A stretch of 64,000 nt of DNA from Vicinamibacterales bacterium (GTDB taxonomy: Bacteria > Acidobacteriota > Vicinamibacteria > Vicinamibacterales > JAMQPK01), in contig CAVXIR010000004.1 of assembly GCA_963761975.1 (NCBI GenBank), positions 2,001,877 through 2,065,876 on the forward strand, read 5' to 3'. How positions within the stretch are numbered: the stretch's first letter is position 1; each line of letters starts with the position of its first letter. This document shows, piece by piece, positions 8,962-48,668 of the stretch. Under the pieces are notes generated by a model. That model made no database searches, had not been told where the DNA came from, and worked only from the letters and a program-made list of their open reading frames with translations. The translations under genes and the position numbers were made by a program.

Positions 8962-10083
8962 ATGAAAGCCATGGCCATCGGGCTCGTGATGAGCGCGATG
9001 CTGACCGTCGATCAACGCGATATGCACCGGTCCGGACTCGACGGCCCTTCGTCCGCCGTCAGCGTTGATGGCCGCTATATCGCGTTCATCACGTATGCGC
9101 AGCTTGCCGGCGCCGACACCGATAATGCGAGTGATGTGTACGTCCTGGATCGGATTCGACAGGAGGTCACATTCGAAAGCCCAGACGTCACGGGCGCGAT
9201 CGATTGTTTCCACGCCGGCATCAGTGGCGACGGCCGCTACCTGGTTTACGAGATGGATGGGTCGATCGTGTGGCGCGACCGAAGCAGGAATGTCACTCGC
9301 ATCGCGGCCGAAGGCCGGCAGCCGTCCATCTCCCACGATGGCCACATCATCGTGTTTGCATCCGGCCGTGACATCTATTCGGTCGACCCGCACAGTGGCA
9401 AAACCAGGCGCATCAGCATCGAGCTGCCAGGTGTCGACGCAGCTCACGCCGGGAGCGTCAAACCCGAGGTCAGCGCCGACGGCAGATACGTGGCTTTCTC
9501 GACGAGGCTGGCGTTCGCAGGTCCTCGTTCACCGGACTCGAGGGTCTTTGTGCGCGACACCGCGCTGAACGTCACCAGGCTTGTCGGAACCGGATGGGCG
9601 CCGTCGATAAGCGGCGATGGCCGGTATGTCGCGTTCGTCGGCCCGGCGGGCAACGTCAGCCACGTCTTCCTGGCCGATCTTCAAACCGGCACGACACGAG
9701 TCATCACGAAGAGCGTGAGGCGCGGGCGGGCCAATGGTTCGAGCGCCAACCCTGGTCTCTCCTCCGACGGCCGCTTCGTCGTGTTTCAATCACAGGCGAA
9801 CGATCTGGTTCGAGAGGAAGACGTCAATCTGTTGTGGGACGTGTTTCTCTACGATCGTACACGCGATACGATTGCGCGGGTCAGCGGCGATTCTGATGAT
9901 GTCTGGATGGAGCCCAGTATCGGGCCTTCCATCGACGGAACGGGTTCGGTGATCGCATTCTCGTCACGCCATCCGACCGGTTTGGCTGACAAGCGCAACG
10001 ATTTCGATCTGTACGTCGCAACGACTCACAGCCCCCGTACTAACGCAGCCTTCTTAACAGAAGACCAGAAGGTCAGAAGATAA
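8962..10083 (+). CDS. TolB/PD40-repeat beta-propeller protein
   Basis: Repeated PSISGDGRYVAF motifs; DTDNASDVYV. Confidence 0.85.
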   Translation: MKAMAIGLVMSAMLTVDQRDMHRSGLDGPSSAVSVDGRYIAFITYAQLAGADTDNASDVYVLDRIRQEVTFESPDVTGAIDCFHAGISGDGRYLVYEMDGSIVWRDRSRNVTRIAAEGRQPSISHDGHIIVFASGRDIYSVDPHSGKTRRISIELPGVDAAHAGSVKPEVSADGRYVAFSTRLAFAGPRSPDSRVFVRDTALNVTRLVGTGWAPSISGDGRYVAFVGPAGNVSHVFLADLQTGTTRVITKSVRRGRANGSSANPGLSSDGRFVVFQSQANDLVREEDVNLLWDVFLYDRTRDTIARVSGDSDDVWMEPSIGPSIDGTGSVIAFSSRHPTGLADKRNDFDLYVATTHSPRTNAAFLTEDQKVRR

Positions 10084-10216
10084 GTACTTGTGATCTGTCC
10101 GTCGCAACGATTCACACACCAATTACTGACGCAGATTCTTGTAACAAAAGATCAGAGTAGAAGGTTAGAGCGTTTTCCGATTGTGCGTAGTTTGCCGGCA
10201 AGGTCTTTTTTTGTCT

Positions 10217-10650
10217 CGACGCCGAGACGCCGAGGCGCAGAGCTGCCGGCGGAAACAGCGAAGCGCTCCCCGTTTTCCTCCGATGATGATCAGCTCGACG
10301 AACAACGCGACGACACGACGAGCGCGACGTCGGAGCACAGCGTGATGGCCTCTGTGGGGTGCGTGAGCGGCCTCTACCGGGCATCGACTTCGTGAGCCGC
10401 GGATGCGGCTCACACAAGAACAAGAGGCGCCACGAATACAGAGCAGCTGGACCGACTGGGCTCTTGTTATTCGTGGCGCTTCTTGTTCTTGTGCGCCAGG
10501 GGCGCGAAGTCGATGCCGTGCTCCCAATCTCCGTGATGTGATGGCCTCGAGTACGTTGGCAGCCGCGCGATCGAGCTCAAAGCAGCGCGCGGCCGGATTC
10601 GTAATCTCTTGAGCTGCGTGTTTTCTCGGCGCCTCTGCGCCTTTGCGTCG
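10217..10650. mobile_element. Putative non-autonomous element: inverted 8-nt-period arrays enclosing structured element copy A
   Basis: Left arm cgacgccgagacgccgaggcgcagag (10217-10242) vs right arm ctcggcgcctctgcgcctttgcgtcg (10625-10650), 21/26 complementary. Confidence 0.5.
10259..10535 (+). ncRNA. Candidate structured RNA (perfect four-way junction), copy A
   Basis: P1 10381-92/10505-16; P2 10393-10412; P3 10413-10493; P4 10494-10504. Covaries with copy B; G.U pair on this strand. Confidence 0.65.
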
Positions 10651-10757
10651 TACTACGCCGATCAGAAAACCGCAATAGAAGGCCACGCAATCGACTGTCG
10701 GTGTGCAGAAAATTCTGCCTCCTCGACTATTCCCGTGCGCAACGATGCAGCTTCATA

Positions 10758-12002
10758 TTAGTAATCGAGCAGGCCGGTGAAACGCGCCAGGCTGACGATT
10801 TCGTCGAACTGAGGGGCCAGCAGGTGCATGGCGCCGGTGACCGTGCCCACCAGCATCGCGAAACACGAGACCATCAGAAGCAACGGTCGCTCGCGCTCGA
10901 CGAGCACCTCGAGCACGATCACATACAGGGCGGTTACGGCAGGAGCGATGTGACGCATCTGAAACCCATAACCGTTGAGGCCGAGCATCGTGAGGGTGAC
11001 CATCACGATAAAGAACCATAGGGCGGCAACTTGAACGGTGCGATTGACCCGGATCGCTCGTTCTCGAACGATGACCCACAACGCTACGAGCGCCAGAGGC
11101 ATGATGAGAGCCAACTTGACCGCGTAATAGTACCCAGGACGCTCGACGGCGATGCGAACGAACGGATAGAGCTCCATCAATCTCGCGTCCGGCTTTACCC
11201 ATGAAGGAACAACAACGCCGTTCTTCAGATAGAAGGCAATCAACCAGGGAACGACGAACAACGCTACAGGAAGAAGCACTGTCATCATGGACACCGCGCG
11301 CTGTTTCCACGGTTCCTCATGGCGAACGCATACAAACAGAAACACTGGCACGAGAATCAACGCGGTCAGTTTCGCAAGGGCCGCCAGCCCGAGAAGACTG
11401 CCTGCCACCGCAAGAGTCAGGCGACGCCGCTGTCCGGAGGCGGCCAGCAGCAGCGCTACGGATAGAGCGGTGAGGCCTGAGAGGAGGCTGTCGATCCAAA
11501 GCCGCCGAGAGACAAACATGAGAAGCGGATCGGCAGCCACGCCCAGCACAGGAAGCCAGAACGCCGGAAGGGTAATGGACGGGTCAGCGGCATCACGCAT
11601 CAGGGCGCGTCGACTCATTATGGCAACCGCGATGACGGCGAGCGCATGACCCAGCCACGATACCAACACTGCCGCGTTCTCCATGTCTGCAATCGCAAAT
11701 AGTGCCAGGAGAGCTGAAAACAGAGGTGGATGATGGAAAAGTGGCCGATCGTAAATGTGCGGTGAAAGCTCCTTCAGCACCTCGCTGCCACGCAGCGAGT
11801 AGTCACCCGTGCGAGCGAGATTCTCAGCGAGTTGCCAGTAAATGCGCTCATCTCCCTCGACGCGAGGATACAGCAAGCTCGGAAGCTTGAAGAGCAGGCA
11901 CAGAACTACGACGGCCCAGCAAAACAGAACGAAGTTACGTGTTGAAGCAACCGCACGGGATGGTGCTTTCGTGGCCCGAACGGCGTTCTGTCGCTTGCTC
12001 AT
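10758..12002 (-). CDS. ArnT/PMT-like (GT-C fold) membrane glycosyltransferase
   Basis: GDERIY, HHPPLF, LAALAKLTA; about 10 TM segments. Confidence 0.8.
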   Translation of the reverse strand: MSKRQNAVRATKAPSRAVASTRNFVLFCWAVVVLCLLFKLPSLLYPRVEGDERIYWQLAENLARTGDYSLRGSEVLKELSPHIYDRPLFHHPPLFSALLALFAIADMENAAVLVSWLGHALAVIAVAIMSRRALMRDAADPSITLPAFWLPVLGVAADPLLMFVSRRLWIDSLLSGLTALSVALLLAASGQRRRLTLAVAGSLLGLAALAKLTALILVPVFLFVCVRHEEPWKQRAVSMMTVLLPVALFVVPWLIAFYLKNGVVVPSWVKPDARLMELYPFVRIAVERPGYYYAVKLALIMPLALVALWVIVRERAIRVNRTVQVAALWFFIVMVTLTMLGLNGYGFQMRHIAPAVTALYVIVLEVLVERERPLLLMVSCFAMLVGTVTGAMHLLAPQFDEIVSLARFTGLLDY

Positions 12003-17708: not shown

Positions 17709-18875
17709 TTAGATCCAAAGCAACGGCTGCCGGACAACAAAATTCCGGATCACCTCGTCGACGGTCGGATCCGAGTCCAGTTTCAGCCACAAGTCCACAT
17801 ACTCTGGCCGAACGAGTGCTCGCCCCGCAAATAACAGACTCGGATGGCGAACCGGCCAGTTTTCGTGGTACTGGACGTCGGGTTTATGCGGCCAGCGCGA
17901 TTTATCGGCGATATACGGAAACATGAATTGCATCATCTTGCGCATGCCCCGCCCATCGGGCAATTCGAATCGCCAGAGGTCGTCGCGCGAATCGGATAAC
18001 GTCTGGCAAACGATCGTAAAAGCGTCGAGGTTGAACAGCGAGTAACCGTACGGCTTGGTCCGCGCAATCTCGAGCGGGAAACTGCCGTCCGCCGCCACCT
18101 GTGTCGGAACCAGCACGGTCTTGTAACGGGTGCGACAGAACGTCATGAGCTCTCGATCGCCGGTGTAGCGCGAAAACTCGCCGACCTGCGCGACCCAGCA
18201 CGTGCCGTGGTTGTTCTCTGCGTTGCGCTCATCAATCCCGTACTGATGAGTCGTCATCCAGGTGAGATAGCGCGTGAACCACTCGCGAACACCTGTGCGA
18301 TCGTTCGACGACATCGCGCCCGATCCGTCGAGCACGCTTGCCGCGCGGGCAACCTCCACCAGATGCAGCGTGTCGATGATGCCGATGCCGCGGCCGGTGA
18401 AGTGCCCTTTGATGGCCTGCCCGTAAAGCAGGTGCGGGTTCATCAGCGTGTCGCCGTCGACGAACCAGGCGCGCAGGTGACGCACCGCGTGATCGGCGTA
18501 ACGGCGCTCGCCCGTGACCTTCCACGCTGCCGCAAGTGCAGGCACCTGCAGGCTCAGGCGCACCATCGCCTGCCGATGGCCGACGAAGTTATCCGGATTG
18601 GTCTCGCCGTCACGCCGGATGTACGGGCCGTCGGGATTCTTCGGGTCGGGCCACCAGTAATCACCCTCGGAAAAGAAGTCGTGTTTCCCTCCGGCGCTGC
18701 GCGGACTGCTCGTCGCCGTAATCGTGATTGGGTTTTCGCCGAGGTATTTGTTCGCCGCGCGCAGCACGCGCTCGCGCTCGATGGTGGCGAGGTCGAAAGT
18801 GCGCGCTTGTGCGAGGGCAAGTGTGCCGAGGGACACAACCCCAAAGGGAAGACCGAGAAACGTACGCCTATCCAT
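17709..18875 (-). CDS. Alginate lyase family polysaccharide lyase (Tat-exported)
   Basis: MDRRTFLG Tat signal; SEGDYWWPDP, NNHGTCW, RTKPYGYSLFNL. Confidence 0.9.
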   Translation of the reverse strand: MDRRTFLGLPFGVVSLGTLALAQARTFDLATIERERVLRAANKYLGENPITITATSSPRSAGGKHDFFSEGDYWWPDPKNPDGPYIRRDGETNPDNFVGHRQAMVRLSLQVPALAAAWKVTGERRYADHAVRHLRAWFVDGDTLMNPHLLYGQAIKGHFTGRGIGIIDTLHLVEVARAASVLDGSGAMSSNDRTGVREWFTRYLTWMTTHQYGIDERNAENNHGTCWVAQVGEFSRYTGDRELMTFCRTRYKTVLVPTQVAADGSFPLEIARTKPYGYSLFNLDAFTIVCQTLSDSRDDLWRFELPDGRGMRKMMQFMFPYIADKSRWPHKPDVQYHENWPVRHPSLLFAGRALVRPEYVDLWLKLDSDPTVDEVIRNFVVRQPLLWI

Positions 18876-18913
18876 GGCCGCCCATCTTATCGTGCGAGGC
18901 ACGGCGATTGTGC

Positions 18914-19394
18914 GAGGGCACGGAGGCATATCCCAACACGGAAGGCACGGGGTCACGGAGACGCACGGTGAAGAATTGGCCTATCAAGAGAAATTCTCTG
19001 CCGGTCATTCCTACACGCGCCTGAGAGGGACTGTTCTCAACATGGAGATTGGAAGCCTCGCATCGACGTCGCGCCTCGGGCGCACCCGAACGAGACGACG
19101 CCCGAATATCAAGAGCCAGGAAATCAGTCGCTCTTGTATTCGAGCGTCGTCTCGTTCGGGTGTGGGCCGCAGACGCGGCCCACGACGTCGATGCACCCAC
19201 ACCGAGGGACCTGAGGCCGCCCAGGAAGTCCGTCACGAAGCACGTCGTGCCGTCGTGTCGCCCTGTCCTTCCTCGCTCCAACATTGCTCAAGGAAACGTC
19301 GAGCGCTTCGTCGTGGGTTGCGGCCTCCATCCAGCGCGGAGTAGCTCAGTGCCCCCGTGACTCCGTGTTTAGACACGCAACCCTCCGTGCTCTC
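18914..19394. mobile_element. Putative non-autonomous element: inverted CACGGAG-type arrays enclosing structured element copy B
   Basis: aacacggaaggcacggggtcacggag (18935-60) vs gtgcccccgtgactccgtgtt (19349-69); outer gagggcacggagg / cctccgtgctctc. Confidence 0.5.
19041..19310 (-). ncRNA. Candidate structured RNA (perfect four-way junction), copy B
   Basis: P1 19060-71/19183-94; P4 19072-82; P3 19083-19162; P2 19163-82; reverse-complement homolog of 10259-10535. Confidence 0.65.
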
Positions 19395-19399
19395 CTAAC

Positions 19400-19447: not shown

Positions 19448-20326
19448 ATGGCACATGAAAAGGAAGTCGGCGGCCTGTCGGGTTGGCTTATGGTGTTCGT
19501 CATTCTGCTCGTGGGCGTGATCACCGTCTGGATAATGGCCACGTCCGAGACGACGTCACGCGGCCTCGACTGGATCATGGCCGCGGGGGTCGTCATCCTC
19601 GTGCTCGACGGCGTGTGTATCGCCGGTTTCACCGTGGTCAATCCGAATGAAGCGTCGGTCGTCACGCTCTTCGGCGTCTACAAGGGCACCATCAAGCGCG
19701 CCGGGTTCTGGTGGGTCAATCCGCTGACGACGCGACGCAAGCTGTCGTTGCGTGTGCGCAACTTCGAAAGCGCCAAGCTGAAGGTCAACGAGCGCGATGG
19801 CAACCCCATCGAAATCGCGACAGTGGTCGTCTGGCGCATCGTTGAAACCTTCGAAGCGGTCTTCAACGTGGACGACTACGACAACTTCGTGCACGTGCAG
19901 AGCGAGGCGGCCGTGCGAAATCTCGCAACGACCTATCCTTACGATTCGCACGAGGACGCGAAGGTGTCGCTTCGGCTGTCCACCGGCGGCGAGGTCGCCG
20001 ATCGGATGCGCCACGAAATCCAGGAGAGACTCTCGAAAGCCGGCATCGAGGTCATCGAGGCACGCATCAGCCATCTCGCGTACGCCCCGGAAATCGCGGG
20101 CGCGATGCTGAGGAGGCAACAGGCCGCCGCCGTCATTGCCGCGCGGCAGTTGATTGTGGAAGGCGCCGTCGGCATGGTGGAGATGGCGCTCAACGAGCTG
20201 AGCCGCAAGAACGTCGTGGCGCTCGACGAAGAGCGCAAGGCGGCGATGGTGAGCAACCTGCTCGTCGTGTTGTGCAGCGAAAAGGGCGTCGAGCCGGTCG
20301 TCAATACCGGGACGCTGTACCAGTAG
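19448..20326 (+). CDS. SPFH domain membrane protein
   Basis: [43 protein letters not shown]. Confidence 0.93.
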
Positions 20327-47989: not shown

Positions 47990-48668
47990 TAGCCGGTAGC
48001 TGGTAGCCGGTAGCTGGTAGCCTTTAGCGCGTAGCCAGTAGCTCGTAGCCAGTAGCCAGGTGCGTTGCAAAAACTGCCTAATCACGGAGTTCGCTGGATC
48101 GAACTTCTTGCCACCCAGGAATGGAAATCCGCGCAATTCCACCAGTTTCAGCTGAGCACAGGCGTTGCTCCCCGTACCGCATGCAGACAAATCATTCCTT
48201 TCGCAATCTCACTGTCTGGCAGCGTTCGATGACCCTAGTCGAGGAAATCTACCGAGTTACCAAGCGGTTCCCGCGTGAAGAGTTATTTGGTCTCACCGCC
48301 CAGATCAGAAAGGCAAGCGTTTCGATTCCTTCAAACATCGGGCAGGGAAAGCGTCGTAAACGGGAACGCGCGTTCCTTCATCACCTCGACATTGCGCTCG
48401 GGTCGCAGGGCGAGGTCGACGTTCAGCTGGAGATTGCGTTTCGTGTCGGATTTCTGCCGAAAAAGGAATACACGCAGATTCAGCTCATCGTCGAGGAAGT
48501 GGGGCGAATGCTGAACGGCCTGATAGCATCGATGCAACCAGCCGGTCCAGATCCATGTAGCGTCCTCGCAGTGCAGGTGCGACGAGCCTGGCTACTGGCC
48601 GACCAGCCCCTGGCTACCGGCTGCGGGCACTAGCTCGCTACCGGCCACTAGCTACCGGCTACTCGCTA
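47990..48668. mobile_element. Four-helix-bundle cassette bounded by inverted 7-nt arrays
   Basis: Ten TAGCNNN units at 47990-48059 and a degenerate CCGGCTA array at 48588-48668. Confidence 0.55.
48181..48633 (+). CDS. Four helix bundle protein (23S rRNA IVP / Avd-like family)
   Basis: FRNLTVWQRSM, FPREELFGLTAQIRKASVSIPSNI, IALGSQGEV. Confidence 0.93.
   Translation: MQTNHSFRNLTVWQRSMTLVEEIYRVTKRFPREELFGLTAQIRKASVSIPSNIGQGKRRKRERAFLHHLDIALGSQGEVDVQLEIAFRVGFLPKKEYTQIQLIVEEVGRMLNGLIASMQPAGPDPCSVLAVQVRRAWLLADQPLATGCGH

Follow-up and report, generated by a model that had tools for sequence, protein, structure and literature searches.

Organization of the two loci

The stretch of DNA analysed here (64,000 nucleotides of a Vicinamibacterales genome, referred to as the window) contains two copies, A and B, of a non-coding repeat of about 135 bp with the potential to fold into a cloverleaf. 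The core of copy A occupies positions 10381..10516 of the plus strand, which is the strand on which stem P2 comes first. Two genes flank this copy and converge on it, one encoding a PD40 beta-propeller protein (8962..10083, plus strand) and the other a GT87/PMT-like membrane glycosyltransferase (10758..12002, minus strand). The core of copy B is located at 19060..19194 on the minus strand, between an SPFH/Band 7 protein gene (19448..20326, plus strand), which is divergent from it, and an alginate lyase gene (17709..18956, minus strand). The ORF start assigned mechanically to the alginate lyase gene falls inside one of the word arrays described below, and the true start probably lies further downstream. 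In most relatives (L089, L091, L093 and L095) this gene is reduced to a 3' fragment or is absent, and for this reason the deletions seem to start at cassette site B.

Each core is enclosed in a cassette. In cassette A, a left tandem array of 8-base words (10218..10242, plus strand) pairs with an opposed array on the right (10624..10649, minus strand). The variable 5' spacer (10259..10380, plus strand) contains degenerate array words and a small hairpin, and is common to copy B and to other copies, in agreement with the homology between A and B that had been noticed 5' of the core. The 3' tail (10517..10535, plus strand) had also been regarded as a shared feature. It is indeed common to A and B, where it represents the degenerate beginning of the reverse word array, but it holds no fixed motif, and in most copies this position is simply the beginning of the downstream array. 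The outer left arm of cassette A (10165..10191, plus strand) is almost the same sequence as the terminal inverted repeat of one IS630-family element in the same genome, and the outer right arm (10652..10673, minus strand) is a degenerate form of the same end, with a score of 11 (threshold, 14). Where the PD40 gene ends there is a further word array (10057..10079, plus strand), which marks the older cassette site, the one that bears a GxxExxY gene in four relatives. In cassette B, the left word arrays span 19345..19395 (minus strand) and the right opposed arrays 18914..18960 (plus strand). The inner unit of spacer, core and tail (19001..19324, minus strand) is 90% identical to an unrelated locus of the same genome (G000:C2:2073793-2074109).

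Folding and covariation of the core

The four-way junction predicted in the initial annotation was recovered at both positions with the same stems, and a covariance model scored 116 bits for core A and 132 bits for core B. In copy A, P1 is formed by 10381-10392 and 10505-10516, P2 by 10393-10412, P3 by 10413-10493 and P4 by 10494-10504; in copy B the equivalent positions are 19183-19194 and 19060-19071 (P1), 19163-19182 (P2), 19083-19162 (P3) and 19072-19082 (P4). The stems measure 12 bp (P1), 8 bp (P2), about 32 bp (P3) and 4 bp (P4) in both copies, with zero unpaired bases at the junction, which, as read off the sequences, is perfect and has one step of branch mobility. Folding z-scores were about -12 to -13 relative to 200 shuffles for both strands of both copies.

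About ten base pairs differ between A and B and remain paired, as originally observed, and the strong covariation held when the comparison was extended to 36 homologues. In the alignment of their stems, pairing was found in 97.4% of the cells, and 27 of the 57 pairs had changed on both sides, a number reached by none of 500 shuffles. Controls with a slid register were only 32–46% paired. Covariation alone does not prove selection at this element, because template switching between inverted repeats homogenises their arms and inverts their spacers, as described in PMC8604942.

No known family accounts for the fold, in line with the initial annotation. Using Rfam 15 at the gathering score, no matches were obtained in the 64-kb window or in 20 related loci, and by E-value only generic miRNA hairpins appeared, far under the threshold. 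The lack of a convincing ORF over the copies was also upheld: the six overlapping ORFs have no Pfam match, and tip inversions (see below) would shift any frame, so a coding role was rejected. Two other candidates were discarded, the end of a group II intron (the GTGCG-like word is not conserved across copies) and a guide-like variable arm (a consensus is common to the arms of different copies).

Copy number and distribution

The element had been described as present twice, which holds only within the window. In the whole genome there are 30 profile matches, 27 of them near full length, and truncated copies are common. BLAST located the element in 13 of the 24 genomes of the genus, with more than 20 matches in each of two. 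An exact pattern retrieved 57 GTDB loci, mostly titled Vicinamibacterales, and the core profile was matched by 30 of the 31 loci that a pattern restricted to the tip retrieved from metagenomes. The covariance model, a tool suggested from the outset, was built and used for genome searches. It matched at least 13 of 121 genomes of the order, 12 of them with clear cloverleafs, in five families, the count being a minimum since scoring was limited to 27 candidates in each genome. When 120 genomes were drawn from the whole phylum, also with 27 candidates scored per genome, the model gave no match beyond the own genome, a null result that is no proof of absence, since the model misses most of the order genomes known to hold diverged cloverleafs. 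Among viral contigs, the tip pattern had no matches, and 119 matches of a 16-base pattern yielded four partial ones only, all below 15 bits. Two soil DNA runs (share 0.06) provided short contigs and one weakly supported joint that skips 10408-10623, all of which were kept out of the evidence. No RNA run was listed as containing the element.

From 121 candidate loci, 87 unique cores were parsed. Truncation, excessive divergence or a false match explained the loss of the other 34. The copies are related to each other, and counts over cores therefore overstate their independence. Six typical copies (L005, L016, L020, L023, L044 and L045) come from an assembly titled "uncultured Bifidobacteriaceae". 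This label is probably wrong, judging from the genes that flank L005, which are 66–81% identical to Vicinamibacterales proteins.

Strand symmetry, inversion isomers and loop type

According to the initial annotation, a G.U pair in the long stem of each copy fixed the strand, and a structured RNA or ribozyme transcribed from that strand was one of its readings. The mismatches of the stems do not bear this out: over the 87 unique cores there are 56 G.T and 55 A.C. The two kinds of mismatch stayed balanced when the cores were split by tip isomer (20:20 and 14:22) or by flank orientation (19:21), and also on the sense strand of the GxxExxY gene in 30 gene-adjacent elements (22:19). Moreover, the single T.G pair of copy B is missing from a 98%-identical twin elsewhere in the genome, which means that the strand call rested on chance.

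Inversions were observed at two levels. The tip of P3 has a one-base asymmetry, located in the 3' arm in 34 cores, in the 5' arm in another 34 and in neither in 18 (86 cores), with the loops reverse-complemented. The two tip forms are inversion isomers, and the asymmetry itself is kept in 68 of the 86 cores. Their ratio was 13:3 in the own genome and 13:16 and 8:15 in the other two sets. The whole core can also be inverted: relative to the flank hairpin, 29 cores have one orientation and 5 the opposite, and between L005 and L038 the core is flipped with respect to orthologous flanking genes.

The commonest loop of P4 is AAC (20 of 87 cores). Stable sheared A:C pairs have reportedly been found in DNA hairpins. 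The tetraloops of P2 conform to GNAB in 32 of 50 cases and to GNRA or UUCG in none of the 50, and the small loops of elements from other genera are GNA or GNAB on one strand in 31 of 50. GNA triloops and cGNABg tetraloops are described as DNA-stable motifs (PMC3201870; PMC10085684).

A trans-acting structured RNA or ribozyme made from one strand would fit the strong covariation and the perfect 4H junction, as well as the P2 loops, which are polarised to the P2-first strand, and there is the precedent of the similar-sized bcr1 repeat, which is transcribed and covaries as an RNA (PMC3184786). This origin nevertheless seems very improbable to us. There is no G.U excess in any frame, both tip orientations are equally common, cores lie in both orientations behind GxxExxY stop codons, and the loops are of DNA type. 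Furthermore, a conserved unpaired core that could serve in catalysis or bind a ligand is lacking, and region A has no sigma-70-like promoter. What survives of the initial annotation is its other idea, that of a structured and constrained element, possibly single-stranded DNA and a junction-like nuclease substrate, which is supported as the best reading. The element is also a caution for comparative ncRNA discovery: it combines textbook covariation with signatures of DNA, namely equal G.T and A.C counts, flipped tips and GNA/GNAB loops.

Conserved boxes and fixed arm length

The distance from the junction to the conserved box at the tip of P3 is 26–27 bases in 80 of 86 cores. Within this arm the sequence is free: over the first 21 bases, identity is 57% between copies and 93% between the two arms of one copy. 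In order to avoid circularity, the conservation of each box was measured in copies retrieved by the other one. In 23 copies retrieved by the tip, P1, P2 and P4 are 70–100% conserved (a variable G/T position excepted), and in 42 copies retrieved by P1/P2 the tip box is 95–100% conserved. The fixed arm length and the conserved boxes make a better case for selection than the covariation does. Two fixed boxes separated by a fixed-length spacer of free sequence, together about three helical turns, suggest that a protein may read both.

Host enzymes such as RuvABC, RecG, SbcCD or gyrase could also be considered, with the element acting, independently of GxxExxY, as a junction decoy or landing site that creates recombination hot spots or buffers supercoiling. 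The perfect junction with its one step of branch mobility suits such enzymes, and the inversions and deletions centre on the junction. Host junction enzymes are largely structure-specific. We regard a role of this kind as unlikely, since it accounts neither for the conservation of the tip box and the constant length of the arm nor for the enrichment beside GxxExxY genes (see below).

Array cassettes, insertion sites and mobility

Opposed tandem arrays of 8-base words surround 77 of the 87 cores and only 4.3% of random positions. In the own genome, 5 of 21 array cassettes bear a core, under a definition of the array that is too strict for a full null. The neighbouring genes are unrelated to each other; at 85 loci, 36 pairs are convergent, 40 tandem and 9 divergent, a count obtained with a crude gene caller and with partial copies included. 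Neither a terminator-like site nor a sigma-70-like promoter was detected in region A. Locking to the direction of replication was rejected, as a hand count based on local GC skew gave 17 leading and 12 lagging copies, with one ambiguous.

Comparison of orthologous sites indicated that the content of the cassettes changes. The core is present at site B in 3 of 16 genomes that have the flanking SPFH gene; in L089 the site is an empty array hairpin, and several genomes have no arrays at all. The B core shares 98% identity with a paralogue from an unrelated locus, but only 76% and 69% with the copies that occupy its own site in L009 and L096, so the content of site B has recently been replaced or re-inserted. 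Cassette A (approximately 10165-10680) has three or four relatives at other, unrelated loci, with internal deletions that differ. No consistent target duplication or insertion boundary was found at the ends of the core; the unit that moves may end elsewhere. Other cargo also occurs between word arrays. In L094, at the position orthologous to site B, about 400 bp of unrelated cargo lie between opposed arrays of 7-base words, upstream of the SPFH gene, and in L116:1307-1463, an orthologue of site A, a different structured non-coding cargo lies between the arrays (weak model score, 19.5 bits).

The ends around cassette A (10165-10191 and 10652-10673) resemble the terminal repeat of an IS630 element present in three copies (L521, L522 and L523), whose transposase is split over two reading frames. 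The element might thus be internal cargo of miniature elements driven by an IS630-derived or other transposase, with the junction as a passenger or an aid to synapsis. The near match between the outer left arm of A and this terminal repeat, and the fact that the outer ends are common to A and its relatives, speak for such an origin. However, at the score threshold of 14 an IS630-like end is found on one side in only 6 of the 30 copies (A included) and on both sides in none, A being a partial exception to the absence of transposase-type repeats on both sides. An end of this kind is missing from the other 24 copies, among them B and its 98% twin, and no consistent target duplication was found at the ends of the core. 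We judge transport by a transposase to be improbable for the family.

Association with GxxExxY nuclease genes

GxxExxY (PF13366) is a widespread nuclease family listed as of unknown function in PMC3424549. Tabulation of the neighbouring genes had been proposed as a route to a cognate enzyme, and this family is the candidate; the dispersal of the repeat within word-array cassettes and their tie to GxxExxY genes had escaped the initial annotation. The adjacent nuclease belongs to PF13366/TIGR04256 and is of the PD-(D/E)XK type, not GIY-YIG. At site A, a GxxExxY gene takes the place of the core in L107, L108, L110 (inverted) and L115, and two of these four genes are broken. Among 48 distinct GxxExxY loci, a core lies downstream in 6 (one of them partial), in both orientations, and in L061, L296 and L075 it begins 3–5 bases past the GxxExxY stop codon. 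In the own genome, 2 of 5 GxxExxY genes adjoin a copy; the shared cassette alone could explain this proximity. Also in this genome, at G000:C4:1974963-1975302, a frameshifted GxxExxY gene lies upstream of a full cloverleaf copy, at a distance of about 120 bp.

With a sequence-blind fold detector, a cloverleaf of the same geometry was found within 420 bp of 26 of 184 GxxExxY genes (14%), and on both sides in 4 of them; the 184 loci include 80 further ones taken among the matches listed. Of the positive genes, 5 belong to the genus (62 loci) and 21 to other genera of the order (92 loci), and none was found among the 30 loci from beyond the order. As controls, 0 of 29 loci of a four-helix-bundle gene (many of them orthologues of each other), 2 of 274 distal windows (mostly coding DNA) and 1 of 400 random windows were positive. 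The contrast within the genus, 5 of 62 GxxExxY loci versus 0 of 29 four-helix-bundle loci, is weak. The 21 diverged loci adjacent to GxxExxY genes score 24–70 bits with the covariance model of the element; a loose tip-box pattern applied to the same loci was too permissive and was not counted. In L295 (1335-1481 and 1991-2127), and also in L406, L431 and L454, cloverleafs of other sequence stand on both sides of the GxxExxY gene, and the L295-type cloverleaf is found in its genome only around that gene.

At the level of genomes, GxxExxY occurs in all 12 with a clear covariance-model match, as against 128 of 301 in the order. The four-helix-bundle gene was rejected as a partner, since 0 of 16 matches in the own genome adjoin a copy and 0 of 29 genus loci carry a cloverleaf. 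One such gene (PF05635) lies in the window at about 48200-48520 (G000:C4 ~2050078-2050395), with no adjoining cloverleaf. As to the dependence between nuclease and element, 158 of the 184 GxxExxY loci have no cloverleaf, including all 30 outside the order, so the nuclease can do without it. Most copies of the element are in turn gene-less, with a GxxExxY gene within 1.5 kb in 0 of 26 model-derived loci. The link, read from gene neighbourhoods, is one of association by co-location only.

The predicted structure of the GxxExxY protein (pLDDT 95.6) has a generic PD-(D/E)XK core. Its structural matches include Cas4 (Z 8.1, rmsd 2.9, 99 aligned residues) and Hjc (Z 6.6, rmsd 3.3, 87 aligned residues), and Foldseek returned no match at E <= 0.001 with this model. 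The predicted fold thus appears to be generic, no closer to junction resolvases than to other PD-(D/E)XK proteins.

The co-location could also arise if the element were a hitch-hiking palindrome, whose stems are perfected and spacers flipped by template switching, which is spread with the cassettes by host recombination and is at most selected for some weak function at the 3' ends of genes, the same for either strand (pausing, protection of mRNA or an RNase III site), GxxExxY being only a co-tenant. Template switching does produce both arm homogenisation and spacer inversion (PMC8604942). The neighbour orientations (36 convergent, 40 tandem and 9 divergent of 85 loci), the frequent truncated copies and the absence of the cloverleaf from 86% of GxxExxY loci are likewise in its favour. 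Against it, the length of a low-complexity, purine-rich arm should wander under drift and homogenisation, yet it is 26–27 bases in 80 of 86 cores, and the one-base tip asymmetry persists in 68 of 86 despite homogenisation. In addition, the same geometry with strongly diverged sequence reappears beside the same gene in other families, sometimes on both sides, and region A has no terminator-like site. We consider this account rather doubtful.

Proposed role of the cloverleaf

The explanation that we prefer, to which we attach about an even chance, is that the element is a non-coding DNA cloverleaf that would serve a GxxExxY repeat-cassette system as its module for recognition or cleavage, the nuclease being encoded in cassettes of the same kind that bear the gene. 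A strand would fold once the replication fork or supercoiling exposes it, either as single-stranded DNA or as an extruded cruciform. A protein would then read the junction boxes (P1/P2/P4) together with the tip box, about three helical turns apart, and GxxExxY, acting in trans in the case of gene-less copies, would nick or cut the folded DNA. Repair templated by the arms may re-perfect the stems, flip the tip or the whole core, and delete arms, and it may sometimes insert the unit into a different array hairpin. Of this scheme, the folding potential, symmetry, constraint, mobility and association are observations, whereas binding, cutting and the copying route are inferred. Effects at the RNA level, at the 3' ends of genes, are possible as a secondary role.

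A bolder extension, which we put forward tentatively and consider possible rather than probable, is that an undescribed class of mobile DNA has the GxxExxY proteins as its nucleases, which read junctions. A PD-(D/E)XK enzyme of 128 residues would recognise the single-stranded DNA cloverleaf, measure the three-turn arm from junction to tip and cut, thereby driving inversion, arm-to-arm copying and cassette transposition without a classical transposase. If this were true, it would represent a mechanism of mobility with no known transposase and a very small DNA cutter specific for both structure and sequence. The element offers a precise candidate substrate for GxxExxY, of fixed geometry and with two boxes, whose diverged copies (about 90) are natural variants, and the function of this family becomes directly testable with oligonucleotides.

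Comparison with known systems

The element resembles the terminal hairpins of parvoviruses, which are branched, folded single-stranded DNA with flip/flop inversion isomers, and integron attC sites, which are folded single-stranded DNA with a conserved extrahelical base in a long hairpin. Unlike either, it is an internal chromosomal repeat, with no Rep or integrase gene beside the annotated loci and no copies in viral contigs. A link to retrons or other reverse transcriptases was rejected, as only one of 14 PF00078 matches in the genome lies near a copy (about 0.9 kb from 1 of the 30). A RAYT partner was also rejected: no Y1/HUH gene is next to any copy in the own genome, and the nearest of 4 PF01797 matches is about 46 kb from a copy.

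The NTS/SRM-Ssn system, as described in PMC11893778, is similar in that the gene of a small single-domain nuclease is flanked by an intergenic hairpin repeat that occurs in many copies, most of them gene-less. There are several differences (PMC11893778): the nuclease there is a GIY-YIG single-strand enzyme and the candidate here is PD-(D/E)XK (PF13366/TIGR04256); NTS is a 30-bp hairpin and the element a 135-bp four-way junction; SsnA cuts one strand only, whereas the two strands of the element look equivalent and their cleavage is putative; and the association amounts to 71% of loci there, as against 14% of the GxxExxY loci here. REPIN-RAYT, according to PMC3116915, shares with the element its extragenic, hairpin-forming, non-autonomous units bounded by inverted repeats and copied within genomes, as well as a cognate enzyme gene flanked by the same repeats. 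The arms of the element, however, are tandem 8-base words and not REP doublets, and its core is a branched junction, one arm of which has a fixed length of 32 bp and inverts. The bcr1 repeat of the Bacillus cereus group and similar MITEs resemble it in their size (about 135–155 bp), cruciform-like shape, compensatory changes and positions not conserved between relatives. In PMC3184786, bcr1 is interpreted as an RNA and is described with direct repeats of 5 bp, whereas the element shows neither a consistent target duplication at the core ends nor strand polarity, is nested in word arrays and is associated with a nuclease gene.

No description of the element was found in the literature consulted; outside it, large motif tables in subscription papers or bioRxiv supplements could hold one. 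We conclude that this is a real, undescribed sequence family of the nuclease-plus-structured-repeat type. It works like REPIN-RAYT or NTS-SsnA and is similar to bcr1 in its size and shape, yet it departs from each of the three in a defining feature and is a member of neither of the first two.
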